This document shows positions 2,525 to 61,115 of a stretch of DNA of 64,000 nt, in pieces. The number at the start of each line of letters is the position of its first letter. Within the stretch, counting starts at the first letter, position 1. The DNA is from an uncultured bacterium (GTDB taxonomy: Bacteria > Patescibacteriota > Minisyncoccia > Phycocordibacterales > Zambryskibacteraceae), in the NCBI GenBank assembly GCA_963789635.1, contig CAWBLF010000001.1, forward strand, positions 59,568 to 123,567, in the 5' to 3' direction. The notes under the pieces were generated by a model. It saw nothing but the letters and a program-made list of their open reading frames with translations, did not search any database and was not told the DNA's origin. The position numbers and the translations under genes were made by a program.

Positions 2525-3067
2525 ATGGCAGTTATCAAACACAAAGATCAGCGCGTCGGCATTTTTATTGACACTCAAAACCTTTATCACTGCGCCAAAA
2601 ACCTATACCACGCCAAAGTCAATTTTGGGCAAGTTGTCAAAGACGCTTTGGCTGGTCGCGTCCTAATTCGCGCAGTCGCTTATGTGATAACTACCGAAAG
2701 CGGGGACGAAAAAGGGTTTTTTGAAGCCTTGGAAAAAGCTGGCATCGAAACAAAAACCAAAAACCTCCAAGTGTTTGCCGGAGGAGCAAAAAAGGGTGAC
2801 TGGGACGTAGGACTGGCCATGGATGCTGTAAAAATGGGACCAAAGTTGGACACAGTCATAATCGTTTCTGGTGATGGTGACTTCGTTCCTCTTGTTGAAT
2901 ATCTCCAAAACACTCACGGGTGCCAAGTAGAAGTCGTGTCTTTTGGCAAATCATCTTCAGGCAAGCTGATAGAAGCTACTGACGACTTCCTGGATCTTGA
3001 TTCTAATCCACGCAAGTATCTTATGGGCCGTCCTCAAAAAAGAGGCCCGAGACCGACAGAAATGTAA
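2525..3067 (+). CDS. NYN-domain (LabA/DUF88-like) putative RNase
   Basis: Contains VGIFIDTQNLYH...GDWDVGLAMDAV...VIIVSGDGDFVPLVEYLQ..G..VEVVSF, the typical NYN/LabA acidic motifs. Confidence 0.75.
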   Translation: MAVIKHKDQRVGIFIDTQNLYHCAKNLYHAKVNFGQVVKDALAGRVLIRAVAYVITTESGDEKGFFEALEKAGIETKTKNLQVFAGGAKKGDWDVGLAMDAVKMGPKLDTVIIVSGDGDFVPLVEYLQNTHGCQVEVVSFGKSSSGKLIEATDDFLDLDSNPRKYLMGRPQKRGPRPTEM

Positions 3068-3086
3068 TCCATAAAAAAGTATCTAA

Positions 3087-3115
3087 CAAAACCCGCGTTG
3101 TGCGGGTTTTGTTTT
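3087..3115 (+). terminator. Rho-independent terminator after the NYN gene
   Basis: aaaACCCGCgttgtGCGGGTtttgttttg: a GC stem followed by a T-run. Confidence 0.75.
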
Positions 3116-3165
3116 GTTCAGTTCTTCAATGCCTATGATAGAATAGAATTTGTAATTTTCTATTC

Positions 3166-4530
3166 ATGCCACCCGAAAAGGAATCTCACATTGAGTTTAA
3201 TGACGACACAATAGCAAAAGCAAGCGCCGAGGCAATAAGTCTTGGTAAAAAAAGTTTTGAGGAACAAAAAAATGCTTTTGGTACGGTGCAAAACAGCATA
3301 AGTGATGGCACTAAGCAAGAAACCGAGAAGGAAAATCAACCTGTGGTCATAAAAAGTCTGCGAACTTACCAAGGTGACATCGCCGAAGCCATAAAAAATC
3401 AAAATGCGTCAGTGTTAACCATTGCAATGGCAGAACAACAAAGGGTTGGGGAGAGGGAAGATCAAAAAGAAAAGGAAGAATTCAAGCCACGAACGATTCT
3501 TCAAAGAATAAAAGGTGAAAAGCCCAAACCTCGCACCCCGACGCCAGAGTTTGTCCCTCCCCGTATTGAGCCAAAGCCAAAACAAGCACCAGCGACGTTC
3601 ACACCACCTCCCATCTTCAATGTTCCTCCTACCCAGAGCGTCAATGTAAAACCAAGCAGGCCGGAATTCCCGTCAAAGATTGTTTTTGGAGAAGCGCCAC
3701 AAAAAAAGATTAACGACGCGTTTCGACGTGACACAGTCACCATCGCGATAAGCATCCTACTTATCCTTCTCGGTGTAGGCGCTGTAGCGGGTTTTTATTT
3801 TTTACAAAAGACTCCTCCAAAACCTGCCGCTGCGCCAGCCTCTGAACTCACAATTATCCCTTATGATACCAAGGAAACTATATCGACTGCCGACCTTGGT
3901 AGAGAGTCTTTGTTGCAAAAACTGAATGCCATTCGACGCGGGGCTCCCATTGCCGACGGCTCTGTTCATTATGTGGAATTGACCAGTGGAGCGACCTCTA
4001 CCATCCCTATTTCAACCAATGATTTATTTTCAATTCTCAATACAAATATTCCGGGCAACGCTATTCGCGCCTTCGGTCCAAATTTTATGTTTGGTTTCTA
4101 TGGAATAAACGGCAACCAACCATTTATTCTCATATCTTTGAATTCATTTGAAAACGCATATGCAGGCATGCTCGAATGGGAAAAGGATATGAATACGGAT
4201 GTGGGGGCGATATTTTCTCCTTCGGCTGTGGCTCTGACACAATATGTGCCAATTAACACACCAGCGGTAGCCAGCACGAGCGGCGTCAAAAATGTCATCG
4301 CCACAGGCACTACAGCTGTCACCACTATTGCAAACCTCGGTCCGGCATCAGATAGTCAGTTTGGAGATGTCACCATTCAAAACAAAGATGCCAGGGTGCT
4401 AAAAAACTCCCGAGCAGAAACGATTCTTTTGTATTCATTCATCAATCAAAATACTTTACTCATAACATCCAACGAATCTGTGTTAAGTGCAATGATAGGC
4501 AAATTCACACAGCAACAATATACTCGCTAG
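3166..4530 (+). CDS. Hypothetical membrane-anchored protein (Pro-rich linker, single TM)
   Basis: 454-aa ORF with a Pro/Lys-rich segment (PKPRTPTPEFVPPRIEPKPKQAPATFTPPP), then the TM segment TVTIAISILLILLGVGAVAGFYFL and a large C-terminal domain. No family was recognised. Confidence 0.6.
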   Translation: MPPEKESHIEFNDDTIAKASAEAISLGKKSFEEQKNAFGTVQNSISDGTKQETEKENQPVVIKSLRTYQGDIAEAIKNQNASVLTIAMAEQQRVGEREDQKEKEEFKPRTILQRIKGEKPKPRTPTPEFVPPRIEPKPKQAPATFTPPPIFNVPPTQSVNVKPSRPEFPSKIVFGEAPQKKINDAFRRDTVTIAISILLILLGVGAVAGFYFLQKTPPKPAAAPASELTIIPYDTKETISTADLGRESLLQKLNAIRRGAPIADGSVHYVELTSGATSTIPISTNDLFSILNTNIPGNAIRAFGPNFMFGFYGINGNQPFILISLNSFENAYAGMLEWEKDMNTDVGAIFSPSAVALTQYVPINTPAVASTSGVKNVIATGTTAVTTIANLGPASDSQFGDVTIQNKDARVLKNSRAETILLYSFINQNTLLITSNESVLSAMIGKFTQQQYTR

Positions 4531-4577
4531 ACACAAAAGACCAAACAGTTTGCATATCCCGTTTTGCTTGGTATCAT

Positions 4578-4943
4578 ATGGCCATGACAGAACAATACGA
4601 TAAATTCAAAGAAAAGTTGGAAGCGGAACGAGCTCTTCTGGAAAAAGAACTGGAGAGCGTAGGCCAAAAGAATCCCGATAATCCGAAAGATTGGGAAGCT
4701 ACTCCAGCGGTTATGGACACTCTCAAAGCAGATGAAAATGAGGTGGCCGACACCATAGAAGAATACGAGGGAAACACCGCGATATTGAAACAACTTGAAA
4801 CCAGGTACAACGAAGTGCTTTCAGCTCTAAAAAGAATTGATGCGTGCACATATGGTGTCTGTAGTGTCTGTGGCAAGCCAATCGAACCGGACCGCTTAGA
4901 AGCAAACATTGCGGCCGATACCTGCAAAGAACATCTGAGTTAG
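4578..4943 (+). CDS. DksA/TraR-family C4 zinc-finger protein
   Basis: 121 aa with a coiled-coil N-terminus and the zinc finger C..C...CSVCGKPIEPDRLEANIAADTCKEH. Confidence 0.7.
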   Translation: MAMTEQYDKFKEKLEAERALLEKELESVGQKNPDNPKDWEATPAVMDTLKADENEVADTIEEYEGNTAILKQLETRYNEVLSALKRIDACTYGVCSVCGKPIEPDRLEANIAADTCKEHLS

Positions 4944-4957
4944 TTATCGTTACTCAT

Positions 4958-6490
4958 ATGGCTTTTGCAAAAGTTCACAGTGCCCAGGCTTCGTTACTCA
5001 CCGCTCACATTGTCGATATTGAAATTGATCTAGCGAAAGGCCTTCCGTCTTTTGCAATTGTCGGCCTTCCCGACAAAGCCGTGGAAGAATCGCGTGATCG
5101 TTTTTCCGCCGCGGTAAAGCATTGCGGATTTACTTCTCCCAAAAGTAAAAGTCAAAAGGTGGTTATATCACTTGCGCCGGCAGACCTTAAAAAAGAAGGG
5201 CCTGTTTTCGACTTAGGCATGGCAGTAGCGTACCTTATTGCCTCTGGAGATATCGTCGCTGATGTGGAAAAAAGTATTTTCCTTGGAGAACTGTCACTGG
5301 ACGGAAAGGTCAGAAAAATTACAGGAGTATTACCGGTGGTTCAAGAGGCCAGAAGAAAAGGGTTTACAGAAATTTTTTTACCAAAAGAAAATGCAGAGGA
5401 AGGGGCGCTAATAGACGGTATCAATATATATGGCGTAGAAACTTTGACCGAAGTTTTGGAACATGTGAGAAAGGGGAGTGAAAAAAAACTTATTCCCCAA
5501 CCAAAAACCACTGTTGATCTTGAGCATTCGCAAGAAAATGAGATGGATTTTAATGATGTCAGAGGACAAGAGCACGTCAAAAGAGGATTGGAGATTGCTG
5601 CCGCCGGCGGACACAACGTCGCCCTATACGGCCCTCCGGGAACAGGAAAAACGATGTTGGCCAAAGCGTTTATTAACATTTTGCCTAACCTCACTTTTGA
5701 TGAAATGCTTGAGGCGACGGCCATTCACTCGGTGGCCGGACTTCTAAAGGGTCCTCTTATCACCACTCCTCCTCTACGTTCACCACACCATACCGCTTCA
5801 TATGTCTCCATTGTTGGTGGCGGAGCAACGCCAAAACCAGGGGAAATTACTTTGGCCCATCGTGGGGTGCTTTTTCTGGATGAATTCCCGGAATTTGAAA
5901 GACGAGTCATCGACGCGCTACGCCAACCCTTGGAGGATCGTGTGGTATCGGTGACCAGAGCCAAGGGGAGTGCTTTGTTTCCAGCTAATTTTATTTTACT
6001 GGCCGCGATGAATCCCTGCCCGTGTGGCAATTTTGGATTTAAAGGAAAGGAATGCATCTGTTCACCAATACAACTGATGCGTTACCAAAGAAAACTTTCC
6101 GGACCAATCTTGGAACGTATAGATATTTGGCTTGATGTGCCCCGTATTGAACACGAGAAACTCTCCGGCGCTTCGGTCGGAGAATCGTCTGAGGTGGTGC
6201 GCAAACGAGTAGCCGCCGCGAGACTTCTCCAACGCGCTCGTTTCAAAAAAAATAAAAGTAAATCCACCTTTAACGCCGAAATGAGTGTGCGTGACCTGGT
6301 CGGGTCTGTAGATTTGCCTGAAGAAAGCAAAAAACTACTGAATGATTCGGCAAAAAGTCTCGGTCTTTCTCCTCGCGTTTATCACAAAGTAATAAAAGTA
6401 GCTAGAACTATCGCCGACCTTGCCGAAAGTGAACAAATTTTGCCTGAGCACATTCTGGAAGCTCTGCAATATCGTCCTAAAAAACAATAG
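4958..6490 (+). CDS. comM: YifB/ComM family Mg-chelatase-like AAA+ ATPase
   Basis: N-terminal Lon-like domain (IVGLPDKAVEESRDR), Walker A GPPGTGKTMLAK, Walker B LFLDEFPEF and a Cys cluster NPCPCG. Confidence 0.9.
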   Translation: MAFAKVHSAQASLLTAHIVDIEIDLAKGLPSFAIVGLPDKAVEESRDRFSAAVKHCGFTSPKSKSQKVVISLAPADLKKEGPVFDLGMAVAYLIASGDIVADVEKSIFLGELSLDGKVRKITGVLPVVQEARRKGFTEIFLPKENAEEGALIDGINIYGVETLTEVLEHVRKGSEKKLIPQPKTTVDLEHSQENEMDFNDVRGQEHVKRGLEIAAAGGHNVALYGPPGTGKTMLAKAFINILPNLTFDEMLEATAIHSVAGLLKGPLITTPPLRSPHHTASYVSIVGGGATPKPGEITLAHRGVLFLDEFPEFERRVIDALRQPLEDRVVSVTRAKGSALFPANFILLAAMNPCPCGNFGFKGKECICSPIQLMRYQRKLSGPILERIDIWLDVPRIEHEKLSGASVGESSEVVRKRVAAARLLQRARFKKNKSKSTFNAEMSVRDLVGSVDLPEESKKLLNDSAKSLGLSPRVYHKVIKVARTIADLAESEQILPEHILEALQYRPKKQ

Positions 6491-6523
6491 CAAACAAAAA
6501 CTCCTTTACGGAGTTTTTGTTTG
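6491..6523. terminator. Bidirectional hairpin terminator between convergent comM and M23 peptidase genes
   Basis: CAAACAAAAACTCCtttacGGAGTTTTTGTTTG: a perfect 14-bp stem with A/T runs on both sides. Confidence 0.75.
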
Positions 6524-6557
6524 CTTACATAATGAAATATTTTAATTTGGTACCAAA

Positions 6558-7610
6558 TTAAAATGGATTTGGCGCTCCGCGAATTTCAAAGTGGAGGTGC
6601 GGACCTGTCACTTTACCGGTAGCTCCGACATAGCCTATGACTTGGCCTTGAACCACATCTACACCATCGGGCACGGCTTCGCGACTCATATGTGCATATA
6701 GAGTTTGAGTGCCATTGCCGTGCTGAATGACAATATAATTTCCGTAACCACCATTCCATCCTCCCATTTTTCTTACTATTACCTTGCCCGTGGCCGCGGC
6801 CACAATCGGCGTACCGTAAGGTGGGGCTATATCCACAGCGTTATATCCATGGATACCTTGGGTTTTTGGTCCCGTTGTCGGGCGAATATAATAACCGTCT
6901 GGAGAAGCCGCTGGACCGGTGGACATAAGAGGTGGCCCATATAAGGGAGCACTCCAATTATTGCCGGAAGAGGAAGAAGAATATGTTTGAGACGAACCGG
7001 AAGTATTCATTTCACCATCCGGTACTATGACAACGTCTCCGGGATTGAGAACGGTGCTATCGGTAATATTGTTGTACTGTTCGATTTCACCTACATTACC
7101 ATTGTAAAGTTTGGCAATAGATTTGATGGTGTCACCACTTTTAACTATATGACGAACTCCGGAAACAGGAAGAATGGTTAATGTCTGTCCAGGAGAGATG
7201 GTGTTACCACTTATATCATTGCCCCAACGAATGGTATTCACCGAAACTCCAAAAAGTTTGGCAATTGAAGAAAGGGTATCTCCAGGACGCACAATATATA
7301 GACTAATCTGGTCGGAAGATGGCGTTATGGTCTGGTTGGACGACAAACCACCTGGATCGTTGTCTGCCAATAGAGCGGACCCACCGACTACCGTAATATC
7401 GCCACCGCCGGTGTTTGGGCTCGGATCAATATTGACGGGGGCCTCCAGAAGGGCAACCGACTGAGAGCTTTTGACTGAAGCAGTTTGTCCTACCGGACTC
7501 AAAAGATTTTGAACGAAGGATAACACTCCGGCATTTGCGAGAACGGGGAAAGACAGGATAAAAGCCCAAATAATAAGGTTTTTTGAGTAAAAACCAGTTA
7601 TTACTCTCAA
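6558..7610 (-). CDS. Secreted LysM-repeat / M23 family metallopeptidase
   Basis: Signal/TM N-terminus and two LysM repeats (YIVRPGDTLSSIAKLFGVSVNTIRWGN; HIVKSGDTIKSIAKLYNGNVGEIEQYN). M23 core: GYNAVDIA...GNYIVIQHGNGTQTLYAHM...TGPHLHFEIRG. Confidence 0.9.
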   Translation of the reverse strand: MRVITGFYSKNLIIWAFILSFPVLANAGVLSFVQNLLSPVGQTASVKSSQSVALLEAPVNIDPSPNTGGGDITVVGGSALLADNDPGGLSSNQTITPSSDQISLYIVRPGDTLSSIAKLFGVSVNTIRWGNDISGNTISPGQTLTILPVSGVRHIVKSGDTIKSIAKLYNGNVGEIEQYNNITDSTVLNPGDVVIVPDGEMNTSGSSQTYSSSSSGNNWSAPLYGPPLMSTGPAASPDGYYIRPTTGPKTQGIHGYNAVDIAPPYGTPIVAAATGKVIVRKMGGWNGGYGNYIVIQHGNGTQTLYAHMSREAVPDGVDVVQGQVIGYVGATGKVTGPHLHFEIRGAPNPF

Positions 7611-7876
7611 TAATATTGAATTAAATCTGTCGCGAAAACCACCTAGCGAACGTTTAAACCGTGAAATAAGCTTTCAATTATTGATAATTCTGTCTTTTCA
7701 GTAAAATATGGCTCTGTTGAGCCATAAACAAGAGTTCGGGATTTTTGATGCACCTCCAATTGTACCAGTTTCACTCTGTTGGTCAACGACTGTGGGGATA
7801 TGGTGGGGACAGTGAAAACTAACAAATTGGCACCAATTTTTTAGTTTATAGTGATCCTTCTGGTATAGTAGGCAGT

Positions 7877-9823
7877 ATGACTAGGGTAAACGAGCTAAAT
7901 TCGCAACAAAAAAAAGCTGTGGAGACCACAAAAGGGCCTCTTCTTATTTTGGCGGGGGCCGGCGCTGGAAAAACTAAAACACTAACTGAACGCATAGTCC
8001 ATATTGTTAGTGGAGGTGTATCGCCGAAAGAGATACTGGCCATCACTTTTACCAACAAAGCGGCCAGTGAGATGAGAGATAGGGTGTTTAGCCGGCTGGC
8101 TGATGAAAAAACTTTAAATAACCCAGTTTCTATAACCGAAAAGCCTTTCATCTCTACTTTTCACGCTTTGGGTGTCCACATACTTAAAGAAAATGCTACC
8201 CTGCTTGGGTTACCGCGCCATTTTGGAATTTTTGATAAAGATGATTCAAAAAAGGCTGTCCGAAACGCCATTCGCGATCTAGACTTGGATCCAAAGCAGT
8301 ACGAACCGGGCAAAATCCTTTCCGCAATATCAAGAGAAAAAGGAAACGGGGTTTCATACGAAGAATTTGCGCTTAGGGCGCAAAATGATTTTTGGTCCGG
8401 CTTGATAAGCCAAGTCTGGCGCAAATATGAAGAAACCTTGAAATACGAAAAAGCTTTGGACTTTGATGATTTACTTTTGCGCACAATGAAAATTTTGGAA
8501 GATAAAAAAGTCAGAGAACATTATCAAAATATTTGGAAATACATTCATATCGACGAGTATCAGGATACAAACGGAGTCCAATATCATATTGCGAAATTAC
8601 TTTCTGAAAAAAACAGAAATATTTGTGTGGTGGGCGATATAGATCAAAATATTTATAGTTGGCGGGGGGCGCGCTTGCGTAATATTCTTGATTTTGAAAA
8701 AGATTATCCGGAAGCAACGGTGGTAACGCTCGAGGAAAATTATCGCTCCACCCAAACTATTTTGCACGTGGCCAATCACATAATTCAAAAAAATAAATTT
8801 CGTAAAGAAAAAAATCTTTTTACAAAAAATGTTTCAGGGGAACCACTTTCACTTTTTGAAGGGTTCGATGAGGTGTCGGAAGCGGAGTTTGTGGCAACAC
8901 AATGCGAAAAATTGATTCTGTCCGGGGTCTCTCCAGAGCAAATTGCTGTTTTATACAGGGCAAACTTTCAGTCGCGCGCGCTTGAAGAAGCGTTTTTGGC
9001 CTACGGGGTAAAATATCAGCTTCTCGGAACAAAATTTTTTGAACGCAAAGAAGTAAAAGATGTTCTTTCTTACATTAGGGCGGCTCTTGAACCCAAAAGT
9101 CTTACCGACCTAAAACGAATACTAAATGTTCCTCCTCGCGGTATAGGTAAGGTTTCACTCCTTAAAATTTTTGAAGGTCGTACGGATTCGTTGCCCATTG
9201 GTGTGCGTGGTCAATATCAAAATTTTATTATTTTATTAAAAACAATCGGGGAAGCGGCCCGTAATCTGTTGCCTAGCGAGACTGTAAGAATAGTTTTGAA
9301 AGAAAGCGGTTTGGAAAAACTATTGATGTCCGGGGGGGAAGATGATCGTGAGCGTTTGGAAAACATCCGTGAACTTGTGACACTGGCCAAACGCTATGAC
9401 AATAATCCCGGGGAAAAGGGTATTGAGGCGTTTTTGACAAATGCCGCTCTACAGAGCGATCAAGACGCGCTCGAAAAACCGCAGGAGGGAGTAAAACTAA
9501 TGACCGTACACGCTTCAAAAGGTCTTGAATTTGATTATATTTTTATTACCGGATTGGAAGAAAATCTTTTTCCGCACATGGGTATGGAAGAGGATGAAGT
9601 GGCTACCGAAGATGATGAGGAAGAACGAAGGCTTTTTTATGTCGCTATCACTCGCGCGCGCAAAAAAATTTATCTTTCCTATGCCAAAACGCGAATGCTT
9701 TACGGGTCGCGCCAAGTCAACATACCGTCGGAATTTGTTTTTGATGTTCCACAGGATATGATAGTCCGTGAAGAAGGAACATACGGACTGCTACGAAAGC
9801 CTATGTTTAAAATAGACTTTTAG
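7877..9823 (+). CDS. pcrA: UvrD/PcrA-type ATP-dependent DNA helicase (SF1)
   Basis: LNSQQKKAVE, Walker A LAGAGAGKTKTLTERI, DEYQDTN, YRS, and the C-terminal VHASKGLEFDYIFI...RRLFYVAITRARKKIYLSY. Confidence 0.9.
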   Translation: MTRVNELNSQQKKAVETTKGPLLILAGAGAGKTKTLTERIVHIVSGGVSPKEILAITFTNKAASEMRDRVFSRLADEKTLNNPVSITEKPFISTFHALGVHILKENATLLGLPRHFGIFDKDDSKKAVRNAIRDLDLDPKQYEPGKILSAISREKGNGVSYEEFALRAQNDFWSGLISQVWRKYEETLKYEKALDFDDLLLRTMKILEDKKVREHYQNIWKYIHIDEYQDTNGVQYHIAKLLSEKNRNICVVGDIDQNIYSWRGARLRNILDFEKDYPEATVVTLEENYRSTQTILHVANHIIQKNKFRKEKNLFTKNVSGEPLSLFEGFDEVSEAEFVATQCEKLILSGVSPEQIAVLYRANFQSRALEEAFLAYGVKYQLLGTKFFERKEVKDVLSYIRAALEPKSLTDLKRILNVPPRGIGKVSLLKIFEGRTDSLPIGVRGQYQNFIILLKTIGEAARNLLPSETVRIVLKESGLEKLLMSGGEDDRERLENIRELVTLAKRYDNNPGEKGIEAFLTNAALQSDQDALEKPQEGVKLMTVHASKGLEFDYIFITGLEENLFPHMGMEEDEVATEDDEEERRLFYVAITRARKKIYLSYAKTRMLYGSRQVNIPSEFVFDVPQDMIVREEGTYGLLRKPMFKIDF

Positions 9824-9827
9824 CTCT

Positions 9828-9848
9828 CCCAGGAGCTCAGCTCCTGGG
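9828..9848. repeat. REP-like hairpin copy 1 (5' flank of RAYT-like gene)
   Basis: CCCAGGAGC-tca-GCTCCTGGG. It lies within the 23-nt string TCTCCCAGGAGCTCAGCTCCTGG that is shared with copy 3. Confidence 0.8.
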
Positions 9849-9870
9849 GTGGTGGTATAATATTGAAATT

Positions 9871-10527
9871 ATGCGAAAGGTTACTTTTTCAGAAAATGAG
9901 TTCTACCATATTTATAATCGTGGGGTAGACAAAAGAATCATTTTTTCAGACGAAACTGATATTGGTAGGTTTTTTGAAAGTATGAGTTTCTTTAACACAA
10001 CAGACACAATGGGAAGTCTGCGCGACAAACACCATCCGACAAAAAATCTCAGGAGCCCAGCTCCTGAGACAAAGCTTGTTGAATTTACTGCATATTGCCT
10101 AAATCCAAACCATTATCACTTCATATTAAGACAAGTAGCAGAAAAGGGAATTGAGAAATTCATGCACAAACTGGGAACAGGATACACGAATTACTTTAAT
10201 ATAAAAAACAAAAGAACTGGTTCATTATTTCAGGGGAGATTCAAGGCAATTCACATTGACTCAAACGAATACCTTTTACATTTAAGCGCGTATGTGAATT
10301 TGAATAACTTGGTACACAAACTAGAAAATTCAACGCTAGTAAAAATCAGGTCGAGTTTTGGTGAATACGTAGGAACAAACACCAATAGCATTTGTGAAAA
10401 GGATATTGTGTTAAGTCAATTTTCAAACAAAGAAGAGTATTGCAAATTTGCAAACAATGCCCTTGAAAATATTCTTGAAAGAAAGGACGAATTAAAGGAA
10501 ATTTCTAATTATTTACTTGAACAATAA
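9871..10527 (+). CDS. IS200/IS605-type Y1 (HUH) transposase-like protein, REP-associated tyrosine transposase (RAYT)-like
   Basis: FYHIYNRGVDKRIIF, HUH motif NPNHYHFIL, GTGYTNYFNIKNKRTGSLFQGRFKA, and YLLHLSAYVNLN (candidate catalytic Tyr). The gene is bracketed by identical hairpins. Confidence 0.75.
   Translation: MRKVTFSENEFYHIYNRGVDKRIIFSDETDIGRFFESMSFFNTTDTMGSLRDKHHPTKNLRSPAPETKLVEFTAYCLNPNHYHFILRQVAEKGIEKFMHKLGTGYTNYFNIKNKRTGSLFQGRFKAIHIDSNEYLLHLSAYVNLNNLVHKLENSTLVKIRSSFGEYVGTNTNSICEKDIVLSQFSNKEEYCKFANNALENILERKDELKEISNYLLEQ
10047..10069. repeat. REP-like hairpin copy 2, inside the RAYT-like coding sequence
   Basis: TCTCAGGAGC-cca-GCTCCTGAGA. It has the same core as the flanking hairpins, with CC and GG removed symmetrically from the two arms. 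Translated in-frame as NLRSPAPETK. Confidence 0.7.
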
Positions 10528-10530
10528 AAT

Positions 10531-10562
10531 CATCTCCCAGGAGCTCAGCTCCTGGGAGATGA
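10531..10562. repeat. REP-like hairpin copy 3 (3' flank of RAYT-like gene)
   Basis: CATCTCCCAGGAGC-tca-GCTCCTGGGAGATG: a 14-bp perfect stem located 4 nt after the stop codon. Confidence 0.8.
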
Positions 10563-10572
10563 TGGGGTAAAA

Positions 10573-11392
10573 ATGAAAACATATTTTCAAAAAAAGAAGT
10601 CACTCGGACAAAATTTTCTTAGAAGTACGGCTGTCGTGCGTAAAATGGTGAAAGCTGGAAAGGTCAAAGCCGGTGACACGGTTTTAGAAATTGGCCCAGG
10701 CAAAGGGATCCTGACAAGGGTGCTTCTTGATGCCAGAGCAAATGTCGTGGCTGTTGAAAAAGATGACCGACTGGTTCCCGATACTAAAAAAAACGTTTGA
10801 AAAAGAAATCGCTTCTGGGCAAATCATTATAATTCACGGGGATATTTTAAATATTGAAGTAAAAAAAATACTCGGAAGCCGAGCTTCCAAATATAAGGTG
10901 GTCGCCAATATTCCTTACTACATTACAGGTCAGCTGTTTAGAATTTTCTTAGAAAGTGAAAACCAGCCCGTGACCATGGTGGTGCTTGTACAAAAAGAGG
11001 TGGCACAAAGAATCGTAGCTAGCGATAACAAAGAAAGTATTTTATCGATGAGTGTAAAAGCATACGGCACTCCAAAAATAGTTCAGAAGGTCAACAGAAA
11101 ATTATTTAATCCGGAACCAAACGTCGATTCTGCAGTACTGCTTGTCACTGATATTTCAAAAAGTTTTTTCGGAGATATTTCTGAAAATGAATTTTTTGAA
11201 ATTGTAAAAAAAGCTTTTTCGCAGAAGAGAAAGCAACTAGGAAAATCGCTGAAAAGTATGCTTGGTGAAAATGCTCAAAAAATATTTGAAATGAGTAATA
11301 TAAAGAGCTCCGAGAGACCAGAAAAACTTAAAACGAAAGATTGGAAAAAACTTGTTTTAGCTTGTGGCAACCTGATCCATAAGGCCCATTGA
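10573..11392 (+). CDS. rsmA: 16S rRNA (adenine1518/1519-N6)-dimethyltransferase RsmA/KsgA, interrupted by one +1 frame change near 10780
   Basis: ORF 10573..10800 gives KKSLGQNFL...VLEIGPGKGILT...VVAVEKDDRLVP. ORF 10727..11392 continues ILKKTFEKE...IHGDIL...VANIPYYITGQL. The join ...DDRLVP|ILKKTF matches the family pattern (B. subtilis DQRLLPILKDTL). Confidence 0.85.
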
Positions 11393-19050: not shown

Positions 19051-19485
19051 ATGCGCTTTCAAGTCCCACAATTCATAGAGGTTGAAGATAAACTCATTGG
19101 TCCATTGACCTTCAAACAATTCGTCTACCTGGCCGGAGCGGGGGGTATAACGCTGGGGGCATTCAGTTTCTTCCCAAAAATTGTCGCCTTTTTGGTCTCC
19201 GCACCTATTGTCGTATTGGGGCTTGCTTTGGCCTTTTACAAAGTCAACAATCGACCATTTGTCATTGTGTTGGAATCTTTTGCCAGATACATTTTTAAAG
19301 AAAAACTTTATATTTGGAGAAAAGATGACAAAAAAGTGATAAAAGGGGGCGGATCCAACGCAGAAAACCCGATGGTTTATGTGCCCCGATTATCAAACAG
19401 CAAACTGAAAGATATGGCATGGAGTCTGGATGTGAGTAAAGGGGAAGCGGCTGACAACGAAGAAGGAATACCGAATAAAAAATAA
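19051..19485 (+). CDS. PrgI-family protein (small two-TM T4SS component, VirB3-like role)
   Basis: MRFQVPQFIEVEDKLIGPLTFKQFVYLAGAGGITLGAF followed by a second TM. This is the characteristic PrgI N-terminus, and the gene sits upstream of a VirB4-like ATPase. Confidence 0.75.
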   Translation: MRFQVPQFIEVEDKLIGPLTFKQFVYLAGAGGITLGAFSFFPKIVAFLVSAPIVVLGLALAFYKVNNRPFVIVLESFARYIFKEKLYIWRKDDKKVIKGGGSNAENPMVYVPRLSNSKLKDMAWSLDVSKGEAADNEEGIPNKK

Positions 19486-19491
19486 GGGGTG

Positions 19492-19593
19492 TTTCATGAA
19501 TATCTAATGCGGGCACGAAAGCGAATGGTGATTTAGACAATTATTGTTCTTGATTCGTTATTCGATTGTCCTCATTCAATATTCATTATTCAG
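19492..19593. repeat. GAATA/TATTC-rich palindromic intergenic element (copy R1)
   Basis: The right arm carries ATTCAATATTCATTATTCAG (19574-19593), 16 nt before the ATG at 19609. The left arm is a partial inverted copy (ATGAATATCTAAT). Confidence 0.5.
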
Positions 19594-40640: not shown

Positions 40641-41096
40641 ATGAAGGAAACACACATGAAAACGACTGTTTCAAAAAATATTGAGGATACCCGCAAGTTG
40701 GCAGTTACTTTTTTGCAAAATCTCAAAGCATCCCAAAAAGGAGCCACCGTAGTATGCTTATCTGGAGATTTGGGTTCCGGCAAAACCGCTTTCGCAAAAG
40801 AAGTCGGTGACATTGTCGGTATTCCGCGTGATGAAATCACCAGCCCCACGTTTGTCATAATGAAAATATTTGATATACAGCACCCAGACTTTAAACGTTT
40901 GATTCACATTGATGCTTACAGGCTTCAAAAAGAAAACGAACTGATAAATCTAGGTTGGAATGAAATAATTGATGAACCGAAAAATCTTATTCTTATTGAA
41001 TGGCCGGAAATGGTGCGGGGACTTATACCAAAAGACGCGCAGACGATAAAGTTTACTTTTGTTGATGAGCAAACAAGAGAAATAAAAGTTGAATAA
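40641..41096 (+). CDS. tsaE: tRNA threonylcarbamoyladenosine biosynthesis ATPase TsaE (YjeE)
   Basis: VVCLSGDLGSGKTAFAKEV...ITSPTFVIMKIF...HIDAYRL...GWNE. The start is taken at MKETHMKTT (40641). Confidence 0.85.
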   Translation: MKETHMKTTVSKNIEDTRKLAVTFLQNLKASQKGATVVCLSGDLGSGKTAFAKEVGDIVGIPRDEITSPTFVIMKIFDIQHPDFKRLIHIDAYRLQKENELINLGWNEIIDEPKNLILIEWPEMVRGLIPKDAQTIKFTFVDEQTREIKVE

Positions 41097-41157
41097 CGAA
41101 TGTCGAATAGTGAATGAACGAAAAATCATTATTCTTAATTCCATATTCATTATTCAA
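41097..41157. repeat. GAATA/TATTC-rich palindromic intergenic element (copy R2)
   Basis: Left arm: CGAATAGTGAATGAACGAA. Right arm: ATTCCATATTCATTATTCAA (41138-41157), 21 nt before the polA ATG. Confidence 0.55.
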
Positions 41158-44420: not shown

Positions 44421-44623
44421 CAATTAAATATGCGCCCATAGCTGTTTTGGTAGGTATACAGGGAATGTGGTAAGTTTGAAAAGTAAATAAATTATGCGCC
44501 CATAGCTGTTTTGGTAGGTATACAGGGAATGTGGTAAGTTTGAAAAGTAAATAAATTATGCGCCCATAGCTGTTTTGGTAGGTATACAGGGAATGTGGTA
44601 AGTTTGAAAAGTAAATAAATTAT
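44421..44623 (+). repeat. Tandem 64-bp repeat (3 units) made of the tRNA-Lys 5' end fused to a conserved core, directly abutting the tRNA
   Basis: Units start at 44432, 44496 and 44560 (period 64), and the true tRNA starts at 44624. The unit is GCGCCCATAGCT+GTTTTGGTAGGTATAC+agggaatgtggtaagtttgaaaagtaaataaattat. Confidence 0.9.
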
Positions 44624-44696
44624 GCGCCCATAGCTCAGCTGGTAGAGCAGATCCCTCTTAAGGATAAGGTCGTAGGTTCGATCCCTACTGGGCGCA
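44624..44696 (+). tRNA. tRNA-Lys (anticodon CTT)
   Basis: Hand-folded cloverleaf: acceptor GCGCCCA/TGGGCGC, D arm GCTC-AGCTGGTA-GAGC, anticodon loop CT-CTT-AA, T arm GTAGG-TTCGATC-CCTAC. Confidence 0.9.
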
Positions 44697-45029
44697 CAAA
44701 ATACAGAAACATCCCGCCTGCGCGGGATTTTCTGATTCTGTGCGAGGCGCAGACATGTTTTGTAGTAACAAAACAGTCGAGCCGGGGTCGCGAGATTTTT
44801 CTGCAGAAAAATACTTGTGACCACAAATACAGAAACATCCCGCCTGCGCGGGATTTTCTGATTCTGTGCGAGGCGCAGACATGTTTTGTAGTAACAAAAC
44901 AGTCGAGCCGGGTGAGAGCGAACACTCGGAGCTTTGCAAGACCTTGAGCGTTTTGTATTCAAAATGCGAAAGGTGTACAGATCCTGTAAGGATCGCGGAA
45001 ATTTTCAGTAGAAAATTATCTGTGACCAC
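44695..45029 (+). repeat. Two tandem copies of the tRNA-trailer composite element (H1-H2-H3-GTGACCAC); the second copy carries an ~85-nt insertion
   Basis: Copy 1 spans 44695-44824 and copy 2 spans 44822-45029. The first ~90 nt are identical (period 126). See findings for the hairpin structure. Confidence 0.85.
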
Positions 45030-45444: not shown

Positions 45445-45461
45445 AGGAAGATAATAACATA

Positions 45462-45548
45462 ACGAATAATGAATATCGAATAAGGAATATTGGGAGAAGC
45501 CAAATCGTTATTTGCTTTCATCCCCCGCATTCTTTATTCTTGATTCAA
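45462..45548. repeat. GAATA/TATTC-rich palindromic intergenic element (copy R3)
   Basis: ACGAATAATGAATATCGAAT (45462-45481) is the reverse complement of ATTCGATATTCATTATTCGT. A degenerate forward copy, ATTCTTTATTCTTGATTCAA, lies at 45529-45548. The element sits between divergent doxX-like and trmH-like genes. Confidence 0.55.
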
Positions 45549-48940: not shown

Positions 48941-48994
48941 GATACGAATTATAGCGAATAAGGACGAATGATACGAATGACTCCGGGCCTAATA

Positions 48995-49054
48995 CCGAAT
49001 AATGAATATCGAATGAATCCAATCGTTATTCGTAATTCCTAATTCACTATTCGT
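48995..49054. repeat. GAATA/TATTC-rich palindromic intergenic element (copy R4)
   Basis: CCGAATAATGAATATCGAAT (48995-49014) faces ATTCCTAATTCACTATTCGT (49035-49054), between divergent ruvA and rpsT. Confidence 0.6.
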
Positions 49055-49098
49055 TCTAAAACTTGCGTTTGAGCAAGGTTTCGGGTAGTATCTCCTTC

Positions 49099-49431: not shown

Positions 49432-49572
49432 GTGGTCACGAATAATTTTTGTTTCGTCAAACAAAAATTTTCTCGACCCCGGCTCACCATAGCCAATTGC
49501 TATTGGCTATATGTTTGCGCCTAGCACAGAATCAGAAAATCCCGCGCAGGCGGGATGTTTCTGTATTCTGTG
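49432..49572 (-). repeat. tRNA-trailer composite element copy (3' of tRNA-Arg-GCG)
   Basis: On the tRNA-sense strand: H1 identical to the 44.7-kb copies, H2 = ATAGCCAAT-agca-ATTGGCTAT, GAGCCGGGGTCG, H3 = AATTTTTGTTT-gacg-AAACAAAAATT, and the end ...TTCGTGACCAC. Confidence 0.85.
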
Positions 49573-49642
49573 CTCCCAGTAGGAATCGAACCTACATTTT
49601 AACTTCCGCAAAGTTATATCCTATCCATTGAACGATGGGAGC
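49571..49642 (-). tRNA. tRNA-Arg (anticodon GCG)
   Basis: Hand fold: acceptor GCTCCCA/TGGGAGC, anticodon arm TAACT-TT-GCG-GA-AGTTA, T arm GTAGG-TTCGATT-CCTAC. The D stem relies on G-U pairs and the variable loop is 4 nt. Confidence 0.75.
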
Positions 49643-59406: not shown

Positions 59407-59497
59407 TGGTCAGTGGTTTCGTCTACAGACGAAACATTACTTAGCTCGGCACAGAATCAGAAAATCCCGCGCAGGCGGGATGTTTCTGTATTCTGTG
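59407..59497 (-). repeat. Short tRNA-trailer element copy (3' of tRNA-Arg-TCT)
   Basis: On the tRNA-sense strand: canonical H1, CCGAGCTAAGTAAT, the hairpin GTTTCGTC-tgta-GACGAAAC, and the end CACTGACCAC. Confidence 0.8.
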
Positions 59498-59567
59498 CCC
59501 CCGGTAAGAATCGAACTTACATTGACGGCTTAGAAGTCCGCAGTTCTATCCATTGAACTACGGGGGC
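59496..59567 (-). tRNA. tRNA-Arg (anticodon TCT)
   Basis: Acceptor GCCCCCG/CGGGGGC, D arm GTTC-AATGGATA-GAAC, anticodon loop CT-TCT-AA (the stem has one G-U pair and one A/G mismatch), T arm GTAAG-TTCGATT-CTTAC. Confidence 0.8.
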
Positions 59568-59794: not shown

Positions 59795-59930
59795 GTGGTC
59801 ACAGATAATTTCTTTGCCGTCGCAAAGAAATTTACGCGACCCCGCCTCGCGGTTTTGCGTACTCGCAAAACATCGCTGTGGCTCCCACAAAAGCACAAAA
59901 TCTGCCGAAGGGAGGTCTTTGTGTCTTTTG
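59795..59930 (-). repeat. tRNA-trailer composite element copy (3' of tRNA-Val)
   Basis: On the tRNA-sense strand: a divergent H1 (CACAAAAGACACAAAG...CTTTTGTG), H2 = GTTTTGCG-agta-CGCAAAAC, GAGGCGGGGTCGCG, H3 = AATTTCTTTGC-gacg-GCAAAGAAATT, and ...TCTGTGACCAC. Confidence 0.8.
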
Positions 59931-60003
59931 TGGGCGGTAGAGGATTCGAACCCCTGACATCTTCAGTGTAAATGAAGCGCTCTACCAACTGAGCTAACCG
60001 CCC
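59931..60003 (-). tRNA. tRNA-Val (anticodon TAC)
   Basis: Acceptor GGGCGGT/ACCGCCC, D arm GCTC-AGTTGGTA-GAGC, anticodon arm CTTCA-TT-TAC-AC-TGAAG, T arm AGGGG-TTCGAAT-CCTCT. Confidence 0.9.
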
Positions 60004-60251
60004 GTTACCTGCGTATACCTACCAAAACAGCTAATCGCCCGCTTACGTATACCTACCAAAACAGCTAATCGCCCGCTTACGTATACCTACCAAAACAGCT
60101 AACCAAACACAACACCTGCGTATACCTACCAAAACAGCTAACCAAACACAACACCTACGTATACCTACCAAAACAGCTAACCAAACACAACACCTGCGTA
60201 TACCTACCAAAACAGCTAACCGCCCATCACTCACGTATACCTACCAAAACA
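60004..60251 (-). repeat. Array of 7 copies of the 22-nt unit TTAGCTGTTTTGGTAGGTATAC (tRNA-sense strand) with short recurring spacers, directly 5' of tRNA-Val
   Basis: Plus-strand copies of GTATACCTACCAAAACAGCTAA lie at 60013, 60047, 60081, 60120, 60159, 60198 and 60235 (the last truncated). Spacers: tcgcccgcttac (x2), ccaaacacaacacct[g/a]c (x3) and ccgcccatcactcac. Confidence 0.9.
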
Positions 60252-60326: not shown

Positions 60327-61115
60327 ATGTCTATTTTGGATGAAATAAAAATTCTTTATGAGGATGATAATATTTTGGTGATCAATAAACCGGCTGGCCT
60401 TGCCGTGCACGCTGATGGCCGGACAAAAGAAGAAACGCTTGCCGACTGGGTGCTGGCCCATTATCCGGAGATGAAAGATGTGGGGGAGCGCGCGAGGCCG
60501 AGTAACGAATTACGAATAACGAACGATGATTCAATATCCAATTCTAAATTCGAAATGCAAAATTCTAATGTTTTGCGACCGGGAATAGTTCACCGTATTG
60601 ACCGCGACACTTCCGGAGCACTTATCATGGCCAAAAGCCAAAAAGCATTTGAATTTTTGAAGTCTCAATTTAAAAATCGATCCGTCCGCAAGGAATATCA
60701 CGCTTTTGTCTATGGCAACATTGATGAAAACTTTGGCACCATAGATAAGCCGATCGGCAGAAGCAGAAGTGATTTTCGCAAATGGTCGGCAGAAACAGGA
60801 GCCCGGGGGGAACTTCGGGATGCTCTGACTTATTTTGAAGTTATTAAGCGAGGTAAAGACGCCACTTTTATACGGGTGTTGCCCAAGACCGGTCGGACGC
60901 ACCAGATACGCGTGCATTTCAAAGCAATACATCACCCAATAGTGGCCGATGCGCTCTACGCTCCAAAAAAAGATAAACTTTTGGGATTTCAAAGAGTGGC
61001 TCTTCACGCATATTCGTTGGAGTTCAAAGACTTGTCCGGCAAAACTGTCGTAGTAACCGCTCCGTATCCTGCCGATTTTTTGCACGCAATGGAAGAATTT
61101 GATAAGAAAAGCTAA
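60327..61115 (+). CDS. RluA-family pseudouridine synthase (no S4 domain) with a ~30-aa insertion before the catalytic motif
   Basis: DDNILVINKPAGLAVH, catalytic HRIDRDTSGALIMAKS, and TGRTHQIRVH. Extra segment: ERARPSNELRITNDDSISNSKFEMQNSNVL. Confidence 0.85.
   Translation: MSILDEIKILYEDDNILVINKPAGLAVHADGRTKEETLADWVLAHYPEMKDVGERARPSNELRITNDDSISNSKFEMQNSNVLRPGIVHRIDRDTSGALIMAKSQKAFEFLKSQFKNRSVRKEYHAFVYGNIDENFGTIDKPIGRSRSDFRKWSAETGARGELRDALTYFEVIKRGKDATFIRVLPKTGRTHQIRVHFKAIHHPIVADALYAPKKDKLLGFQRVALHAYSLEFKDLSGKTVVVTAPYPADFLHAMEEFDKKS

Follow-up and report, generated by a model that had tools for sequence, protein, structure and literature searches.

Cognate, Concertedly Evolving Hairpins at a RAYT-Type Y1 HUH Gene of the Patescibacteriota

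The window analyzed in this work is a stretch of 64,000 nucleotides (nt) from an uncultured bacterium of the Zambryskibacteraceae (Patescibacteriota; GenBank assembly GCA_963789635.1, contig CAWBLF010000001.1, positions 59,568 to 123,567). It contains a gene for a Y1 HUH protein that is flanked, and also interrupted, by copies of a short hairpin (Table 1). We conclude with high confidence that this gene is of the REP-associated tyrosine transposase (RAYT) type, where REP stands for repetitive extragenic palindrome, and that it is accompanied by cognate hairpins that evolve in concert. The hairpin copies of one locus change together and in place, and orthologous loci differ from each other. As an explanation, we consider it probable that the gene is inherited vertically, is present in a single copy, and codes for a RAYT-type HUH nuclease of single-stranded DNA (ssDNA) that has its own, nearly private hairpins; the homogenization of these hairpins would be linked to the enzyme and/or to template switching, and the gene would regulate itself. 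We place moderate confidence in the enzymatic and regulatory steps of this explanation, which were deduced from sequence comparisons. The arrangement resembles the REPtron of Escherichia coli and not a classical high-copy REP system.

Hairpins and Their Fixed Sites

The 24-mer TCTCCCAGGAGCTCAGCTCCTGGG occurs at positions 9825-9848 and again at 10533-10556, and the two copies are 100% identical. Since 0 of 100 dinucleotide-preserving shuffles contained a match, the chance expectation for this 24-mer amounts to 0.00. An earlier note on this DNA had described a single-copy Y1 gene, located between pcrA/uvrD and ksgA, that carries the same palindrome 22 nt upstream and 4 nt downstream. Most of this description holds. 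The copies are indeed identical, and the 5' copy ends 22 nt ahead of the ATG of the Y1 gene. The downstream spacing had to be corrected: this copy begins 5 nt past the stop codon, not 4, and forms the core of the longer 3' palindrome with its 17-bp stem. The Y1 gene is present once in the 64-kb window, the Pfam matches of the two neighbors confirm the location of the cassette, and the upstream hairpin follows the helicase stop codon (TAG at 9821-9823) as directly as claimed, with 1 nt in between.

Two more sites lie inside the coding sequence. Relative to the flank copies, the copy at internal site 1 has one altered loop base and one stem pair in which both partners changed (C>T with G>A), so that its pairing is preserved. 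Internal site 2 holds a remnant that is position-equivalent to the HQLGxxxSKLV hairpin of homologues and no longer folds. As ssDNA, the 5', site 1 and 3' hairpins fold far better than shuffled sequences, with z values between -3.6 and -7.8.

To this locus we added 80 homologous metagenome loci, which together with the window make 81. Hairpins were called at fixed cut-offs: a stem with 8 or more matches and no more than 1 mismatch, and a loop no longer than 6. Weakly eroded copies therefore count as absent. Two duplicate pairs (L041/L044 and L045/L047) were left out of the density and promoter counts described below and kept in the site counts. With this protocol, we could establish that the family has four hairpin sites at fixed positions: a 5' flank site about 40 nt ahead of the ATG (72 of 81 loci), internal site 1 at about +176 from the ATG (56 of 81), internal site 2 at about +450 (50 of 81), and a 3' flank site at or just past the stop codon (66 of 81). 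The two flank-site counts are minimum values, since in some loci the contig ends near the gene. All four sites carry a hairpin in 25 of the 81 loci. The consensus of the family hairpin is (C)ACTTGG-NNNN-loop-NNNN-CCAAGT(G), in which the inner stem and the loop are variable; the hairpin type of the window, CCCAGGAGC, is one of several outliers from this consensus.

Internal sites without a hairpin nearly keep the length of the corresponding protein segment (18.6 versus 21.0 residues at site 1, and 11.4 versus 12.3 residues at site 2). This near-equal length indicates that the internal sites are ancestral and that hairpins were lost by erosion rather than by precise excision. Site 2 of the window is in this eroded state. 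An observation in the other direction concerns site 1. In the representative proteins P0198, P0223, P0226 and P0253, the family profile matches in two stretches that are separated by about 25-45 extra residues at this site, and one locus (L072) carries a double hairpin there. Site 1 may accumulate several hairpin units.

In the protein alignment, the internal sites appear as the same short peptide that occurs twice per homologue and differs between proteins (for example SEAS/SEAS, GKAS/GKAS, SSTP/SSTP); such peptides result when a palindrome is read in codons. Since the internal copies are translated, and since the frame Q-L-G...K-L recurs across the family, one could argue that these peptides are structural elements of the protein and that the matches in the flanks arose by chance. 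We assign practically no probability to this reading. A purely protein-level repeat is excluded because the non-coding flanks share the nucleotide sequence of the coding copies, and chance matching is at odds with the result from the shuffled sequences. Furthermore, loop flips alter the encoded residue, the peptides fall into loops of the protein model with low confidence, and a 6-of-8 self-match is found in 81 of the 120 closest homologues and never in shuffled proteins.

Concerted Evolution

Over the central 21 nt, hairpin copies within one locus share a median identity of 100% (mean 91.5%), as compared to 61% between loci. Copies in the flanks resemble the internal copies (0.90-0.93) as much as they resemble each other (0.92). 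The gene order uvrD-[Y1]-ksgA is common to the window and five metagenome loci (L003, L015, L020, L051 and L059), for which the identity with the window is 52-62% in UvrD and 50-59% in the Y1 protein. These six syntenic loci contain six different hairpins, each of which is homogeneous within its own locus. Across the family, the similarity of the hairpins falls with the p-distance of the proteins, from 1.00 below 0.1 to 0.82 at 0.25-0.35, and reaches background beyond 0.45. Paralogues follow the same pattern: two Y1 paralogues that are located 7 kb apart on one contig (L086) have kept different hairpins, and the distant paralogues in L023 and L075 (34% identity) are flanked by hairpins of their own.

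Among the near-identical strains L083-L088, we found no hairpin polymorphism. We also looked for recombination at the hairpins by comparing distance matrices computed separately for the N-terminal, the core and the C-terminal module of the protein; in this comparison, the within-module control correlation was itself only 0.05. In the contig L086, the two paralogues have the same orientation and bracket three large genes with LamG/pentaxin domains (2894-10666; the same arrangement occurs in L083 and L087). Paralogue B of this contig contains one hairpin type at the 5' flank and at site 1, and another at site 2 and at the 3' flank, which could indicate either a recombinant gene or local homogenization in pairs.

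The mispairs reveal the level at which the hairpins are constrained. In the family, 96% of the stem positions are Watson-Crick paired, and for 20 differences between the copies of a locus, the change on one side of the stem is matched by a change on the other. Selection on a structure in the sense RNA should favor G-T mispairs; these are, however, as common (25 cases) as mispairs of the A-C type (24 cases). The orientation of the loop flips freely among the sites, with a change of the encoded residue at internal sites. What is constrained is the palindrome in the DNA, rather than the peptide or a sense RNA.

The Encoded Protein

The Y1 gene codes for a protein of 218 residues with the motifs NHYH (residues 80-83) and AYVNLN (residues 140-145). 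These motifs, together with a match to Pfam Y1_Tnp (27.9 bits, cut-off 23 bits), corroborate the Y1 transposase signature that had been reported for this protein on the basis of HYH and the tyrosine in AYVNLN. An AlphaFold (AF2) model computed from 32 homologues has a mean predicted local distance difference test score (pLDDT) of 80.9. In a fold comparison with this model, the only significant solved structure was 4er8_A (E 2.8e-5, probability 1.0), which is the REP-associated tyrosine transposase of E. coli bound to a REP hairpin (PDB 4ER8). Matches to the TnpA proteins of IS608, ISDra2 and IS200 ranked below. A search of PDB sequences with the family profile returned no match at E values up to 1. 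In the model, site 1 maps to a disordered loop (residues 55-64) and site 2 to the loop past the tyrosine helix.

Residues H81, H83 and Y141 are present without exception in the 81 homologues, and the family motifs across these homologues are NH[YF]H, LFQG and Y[VI]NLN[ND]. The earlier assignment to a RAYT-like enzyme class is consistent with these motifs, which belong to class 2 in the scheme of Quentin et al. 2018, and with the fold match to 4er8_A. Together, the data assign this protein to the Y1 HUH enzymes of the RAYT (class 2 TnpAY1) type and set it apart from IS200 transposases.

Among 5.8 billion proteins, the closest relative of the window protein is 63% identical, and more than 5,000 homologues were found among the candidates scored. 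Homologues with a source name are all labeled as Patescibacteria-type organisms (Paceibacterota, Yonathbacteria, Kaiserbacteria, Minisyncoccia) or as an unclassified "bacterium". The family is very large: when all of 1.84 billion representatives were searched with the profile, 1,010 clusters (at 50% identity) were returned at E<=1e-30 and 9,521 clusters at E<=1e-10. The cluster of the window protein has one member.

Copies Away from the Gene

The earlier note had proposed a RAYT/REP system. The "REP" half of this proposal was not supported by the DNA that was sampled. The remaining 63 kb of the window, outside the Y1 cassette, contain no further copy of the window hairpin, and this hairpin has no 5' GT[AG]G guide. 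A scan of 185,579 species genomes for CCCAGGAGCTCAGCTCCTGGG, a set to which the source genome does not belong, returned a single match in an unrelated metagenome-assembled genome (MAG) of the Actinomycetota, which we take to be a chance match. Around related loci, 17-18 hairpin copies are found away from the gene in about 550-570 kb, or approximately one per 30-70 kb. Calculated from small numbers, the density of these copies falls with distance from the gene: it amounts to 0.6-0.75 per 10 kb in the nearest 1 kb, and to 0.11-0.15 per 10 kb at distances above 4 kb.

Some of these copies reside, in frame, in other genes. The ksgA gene of L015 contains a nine-codon insert (PLGGSASKW) that corresponds exactly to the cognate 27-nt hairpin, is in frame, and is absent in orthologues. 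The ksgA gene of the window also contains an in-frame hairpin, at a site that differs from that of the L015 insert. This hairpin is absent at the same site in orthologous ksgA genes, and there is no clear length change relative to these orthologues. It is the sole palindrome of the family-consensus class in 64 kb, with 0.04 expected, and its two C-A mispairs on the plus strand are G-T pairs on the minus strand. In L086, a hairpin copy is located inside a giant open reading frame (ORF). A unit of about 27 nt can therefore be copied to new places, mostly nearby, without a large REP population.

A Y1 HUH protein flanked by hairpins is also what one would expect of a minimal autonomous insertion sequence (IS) of the IS200/IS605 type, in which case the flank hairpins would be the ends of a transposing 740-bp cassette. 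Most of the 80 loci contain no match to the neighbors of the window gene, possibly because the context is different, because the neighbors are too diverged or because they lie off the contig, and the L086 paralogues bracket three LamG-domain genes. Nonetheless, we judge this reading to be very unlikely. The window contains one copy of the gene, the best relative of which is as distant as 63% identity, in a cluster of one member. The syntenic position has been kept while UvrD diverged to 52-62% identity. The motifs are those of class 2, and the flanks are identical palindromes instead of distinct left and right ends (LE and RE). In response to the suggestion that a tnpB partner should be looked for, we found that none adjoins the Y1 gene, which has uvrD and ksgA as its neighbors. 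Relatives of the Y1 protein are absent from 2.9 million viral contigs, and plasmids contain no close relatives, only matches of 23-37% identity. Finally, an insertion sequence would not account for the internal copies. As an insertion sequence the locus is largely refuted, and the gene looks vertically inherited.

Readings as a clustered regularly interspaced short palindromic repeat (CRISPR) array, as an integron attC site or as a miniature inverted-repeat transposable element (MITE) were rejected as well. They do not fit four copies that are tied to one gene at fixed positions, and the Y1 locus contains no CRISPR array, integrase or terminal inverted repeats.

Predicted Promoter

The 5' hairpin is distinguished from the other copies by its surroundings. 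The extended -10 motif TGnTAnnnT abuts the 3' foot of this hairpin in 42 of 70 loci, as compared to 1 of 54, 0 of 49 and 2 of 64 at the other three hairpin sites. Across loci, the -10 hexamer usually ends 6-9 nt ahead of the ATG. This geometry leads to the prediction that the 5' hairpin fills the spacer and the -35 region of the Y1 promoter, outside the predicted mRNA, and that this mRNA would be leaderless or near-leaderless. The box in the window (Table 1) was not listed by a generic promoter scan because the 5' hairpin of this locus offers no -35 match.

As for transcription termination, A-rich runs at 10040-10047, 10521-10528 and 10859-10867 precede the site 1, 3' flank and ksgA hairpins on the plus strand, and these three hairpins therefore score as terminator-like on the minus strand. 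The family-wide composition contains no A-run ahead of the internal hairpins. Intrinsic terminators on the plus strand were rejected, since no T-run follows the hairpins.

Table 1. Positions of the Y1 gene, its hairpins, the predicted promoter element and the neighboring genes in the window
Feature	Position	Strand	Description
Y1 HUH gene, RAYT type	9871..10527	+	218 aa; NHYH at nt 10108-10119; Tyr141 in AYVNLN at nt 10288-10305
5' flank hairpin	9825..9848	.	TCTCCCAGGAGC-TCA-GCTCCTGGG; family site "5f", about 40 nt ahead of ATG; ssDNA fold -10.4 kcal/mol, z -3.6
Internal site 1 hairpin	10045..10068	.	AATCTCAGGAGCCCAGCTCCTGAG; in frame, (N)LRSPAPE, aa 59-66; ssDNA fold -10.5 kcal/mol, z -7.2
Internal site 2 remnant	10318..10341	.	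AAACTAGAAAATTCAACGCTAGTA; KLENSTLV, directly past the catalytic-Tyr helix; fold -1.8 kcal/mol, z -1.1
3' flank hairpin	10529..10563	.	17-bp stem; 1 nt past stop; contains second 24-mer (10533-10556); ssDNA fold -18.7 kcal/mol, z -7.8
Extended -10 box (predicted)	9853..9861	+	TGGTATAAT; 4 nt past 5' hairpin, ends 9 nt ahead of ATG
ksgA hairpin	10868..10894	.	ATACTCGGAAGCCGAGCTTCCAAATAT; family-consensus (ACTTGG...CCAAGT) type; in frame, ILGSRASKY
uvrD/pcrA helicase gene	7877..9823	+	Pfam UvrD-helicase 278.6 bits, UvrD_C 229 bits
ksgA/rsmA	10573..11392	+	two overlapping ORFs in different frames; Pfam RrnaAD

Mechanism and Alternatives

How may such a gene work? In the explanation that we favor, the protein would bind, and probably nick and rejoin, hairpins that are extruded on ssDNA. 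This step is suggested by three observations: solved relatives of this fold recognize and cut ssDNA hairpins, none of the catalytic residues varies in the family, and the hairpins diverge together with the gene, each paralogue having its own. The activity of the enzyme and/or short-range replicative template switching would then overwrite one hairpin copy with another. In this process, the conserved outer stems could provide microhomology, and the symmetry of the palindrome would allow either orientation. Overwriting of this kind would explain why copies are identical, why loops flip, why copies cluster near the gene, and why in-frame insertions arise on rare occasions. Finally, since one hairpin copy is embedded in the predicted promoter, it seems plausible that the protein binds to this copy and represses its own transcription.

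Several observations weigh against this explanation. One internal site is eroded in about one third of the loci, which means that not every copy is required. The window contains no dispersed copies in 63 kb that would speak for a mobilization of REPs. Mixed hairpin types occur in L007, in L033 and in paralogue B of L086. The protein scores 25.6 bits with the NCBIfam RAYT equivalog NF047646, below its cut-off of 80 bits. The 5' GT[AG]G guide is absent from the family, the position-specific composition of which is only symmetric, (C)CACTTGG...CCAAGTG(G). The promoter is a prediction, and the 5' hairpin of the window lacks a -35 match. The link between enzyme and hairpins is inferred from co-location and co-divergence, and homogenization could proceed purely by replicative template switching with no need for the enzyme.

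Following this last argument, the hairpins could be nothing else than regulatory elements of the host (operator or insulator, 3' stabilizer, pause sites) that are homogenized independently of the enzyme, with the Y1 protein acting elsewhere. Such a role would suit the 5' copy, which in 60% of loci directly adjoins an extended -10 box, the 3' copy at the stop codon, and the clustering of copies within about 1 kb of the gene. Paralogues that are 7 kb apart and contain different hairpins would fit a copying process that depends on distance. Perfect palindromes and loop flips, as found in this family, are classic products of template switching. Although this is the main rival, we consider it unlikely. 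It leaves unexplained why the hairpins accompany one gene family across 80 or more diverged genomes and also in its distant paralogues, and why copies occur in coding sequence at two conserved sites. The solved relatives of the Y1 family are hairpin-specific ssDNA nucleases, the hairpins lack the T-runs of the evident intrinsic terminators at 3085, 6489 and 49361, and the equal numbers of G-T and A-C mispairs argue against a structure in sense RNA.

The enzyme-linked explanation can also be taken one step further. The gene and its hairpins would then form a closed, self-referential unit: the hairpins would be working substrates of the enzyme, which would nick and rejoin these sites, rewrite all four copies including two stretches of its own coding sequence each time the target drifts, and exert feedback at its own promoter. 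We regard this extended version as distinctly unlikely. If true, the unit would represent a RAYT stripped of its REP population, in which the "housekeeping" activity that has long been sought for RAYTs would be laid open in minimal genomes. The protein would also be a rare example of an enzyme whose editing of its own gene keeps pace with its DNA specificity.

Comparison with Known Systems

The REPtron of E. coli consists of TnpAREP/RAYT and REPs that are organized in bacterial interspersed mosaic elements (REP-BIME; PDB 4ER8; subclass 2.2 of Quentin et al. 2018, Group 2 of Bertels et al. 2017), and its enzyme shares the Y1 HUH fold with the window protein. The two systems also have in common a single-copy gene of seemingly vertical inheritance, cognate flanking palindromes, and a separate hairpin family for each paralogue. 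They differ in that the hairpins of the window family are perfect palindromes of 23-27 nt, some of which reside inside the gene, and in copy number: relatives have about 10 per Mb and the rest of the window (63 kb) has 0, whereas REPs number in the hundreds. Of the features that define classical RAYT/REP systems, three are lacking in the sampled DNA, namely high copy number, the GT[AG]G guide and an equivalog-level score. The link in sequence is weak, as evident from the equivalog score and from the failure to match a PDB sequence.

REPs that are inserted in frame inside tnpAREP have been reported for subclass 2.4 (Quentin et al. 2018, PMC6006769), which corresponds to Group 4 of Bertels et al. 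and occurs in Cyanobacteria and Bacteroidetes. As in the window family, cognate copies flank and interrupt the gene, keep the frame, and map to peripheral loops of protein models. The motifs of this subclass are NH[IFV]H, WQ and YIxNNP, as compared to NH[YF]H, FQ and Y[VI]NLN in the window family, and its REPs contain the GT[AG]G guide and are of the "long" or "double foot" types (PMC6006769). The window family differs by its Patescibacteria lineage and by inserts at two fixed sites, one ahead of the HuH motif (residues 59-66) and one past the tyrosine (residues 150-157). REPs in coding regions are also mentioned by the same authors, citing Di Nocera et al. (PMC6006769).

By motifs, the closest group is subclass 2.1 (Group 1 of Bertels et al.; TIRYT of Di Nocera et al.), one variant of which contains NH[YF]H, FQ and Y[IV]HLNP (Table 1 of PMC6006769). 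Relative to this variant, the window family has exchanged H for N and lost the final P of Y---NP; the placement is by motifs only. Proteins of subclass 2.1 are about 220-240 residues long (tabulated as about 238) and have a C-terminal extension, and the window protein has 218 residues with a helical C-terminus. No REP-like sequences were found for subclass 2.1 (Quentin et al. 2018, PMC6006769), in contrast to the window family with hairpins in nearly all loci.

The TnpA proteins of IS200/IS605 elements (IS608, ISDra2) have the same fold, although as second-tier matches, as well as hairpins by the gene, and similar ssDNA chemistry is expected. Their motifs are DH[VI]H and Y---Q instead of NH[YF]H and Y[VI]NLN (PMC6006769). 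Unlike these elements, the window gene is single-copy and syntenic, and comes without tnpB or near-identical copies. The ends of IS200/IS605 elements are a distinct LE and RE, whereas the window gene is flanked by identical perfect palindromes.

Rickettsia palindromic elements are another class of palindromes that are inserted in frame in protein-coding genes. The hairpins in ksgA of the window and of L015 may be comparable to them, in that a unit with a length divisible by three is tolerated in surface loops of a protein. In this comparison, the hairpin unit is far shorter (about 27 nt) and is tied to a cognate HUH gene.

We found no literature that links RAYT/TnpAREP with hairpins in Patescibacteria or the candidate phyla radiation (CPR); one preprint contains a KEGG term only. 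Because the Joint Genome Institute (JGI) already labels some members of the family as "RayT", the assignment of the enzyme is not new. New are the lineage, the four-site architecture with two fixed in-frame sites, the concerted evolution, the overlap with the predicted promoter, and the near absence of a dispersed population.

The cellular role of RAYTs, a widespread group of domesticated transposases, is still sought. These enzymes have been studied almost only beside hundreds of REPs, a context that confounds the function of the gene with the proliferation of repeats. In the window family, the hairpins are nearly confined to the gene, which makes for a compact natural system of about 740 bp that is suited to the study of hairpin recognition by RAYT-type proteins, of homogenization among copies, and of autoregulation. 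The fact that extremely reduced genomes retain this system suggests that the cell benefits from it and that it is more than a selfish element. On a practical note, the label "transposase" that annotation pipelines attach to such genes overstates the mobile-element content of CPR genomes.

Neighboring Genes and Other Repeats

The ATG of ksgA lies 9 nt past the 3' palindrome. The gene is split into two ORFs (10573-10800 and 10727-11392) that cover positions 2-71 and 66-258 of the RrnaAD profile, respectively. The frame breaks near a run of eight A at about 10785-10792, and could reflect a frameshift from sequencing or assembly, or else a pseudogene.

The window contains further repeats next to tRNA genes. 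Three tandem 64-nt units, each a partial copy of a tRNA 5' portion, occupy positions 44422-44645 and end in an intact tRNA-Lys gene (44624-44697). Tandem 34/39-nt units of the same kind are located at 59971-60251 beside tRNA-Val (59930-60003). These partial copies may have been left behind by repeated events of integration or excision at the tRNA genes. A different repeat of 75-88 nt with the hairpin AAAATCCCGCGCAGGCGGGATTTT occurs at 44699-44786, 44825-44912, 49524-49598 and 59449-59523, where it adjoins the genes for tRNA-Lys, tRNA-Arg-GCG and tRNA-Arg-TCT in both orientations. Five AT-rich intergenic elements (19454-19592, 41093-41156, 45459-45547, 48992-49060 and 60502-60550) consist of (NNCGAAT)n heptads followed by inverted (ATTCNNN)n and constitute a second repeat family that is unrelated to the Y1 hairpins.

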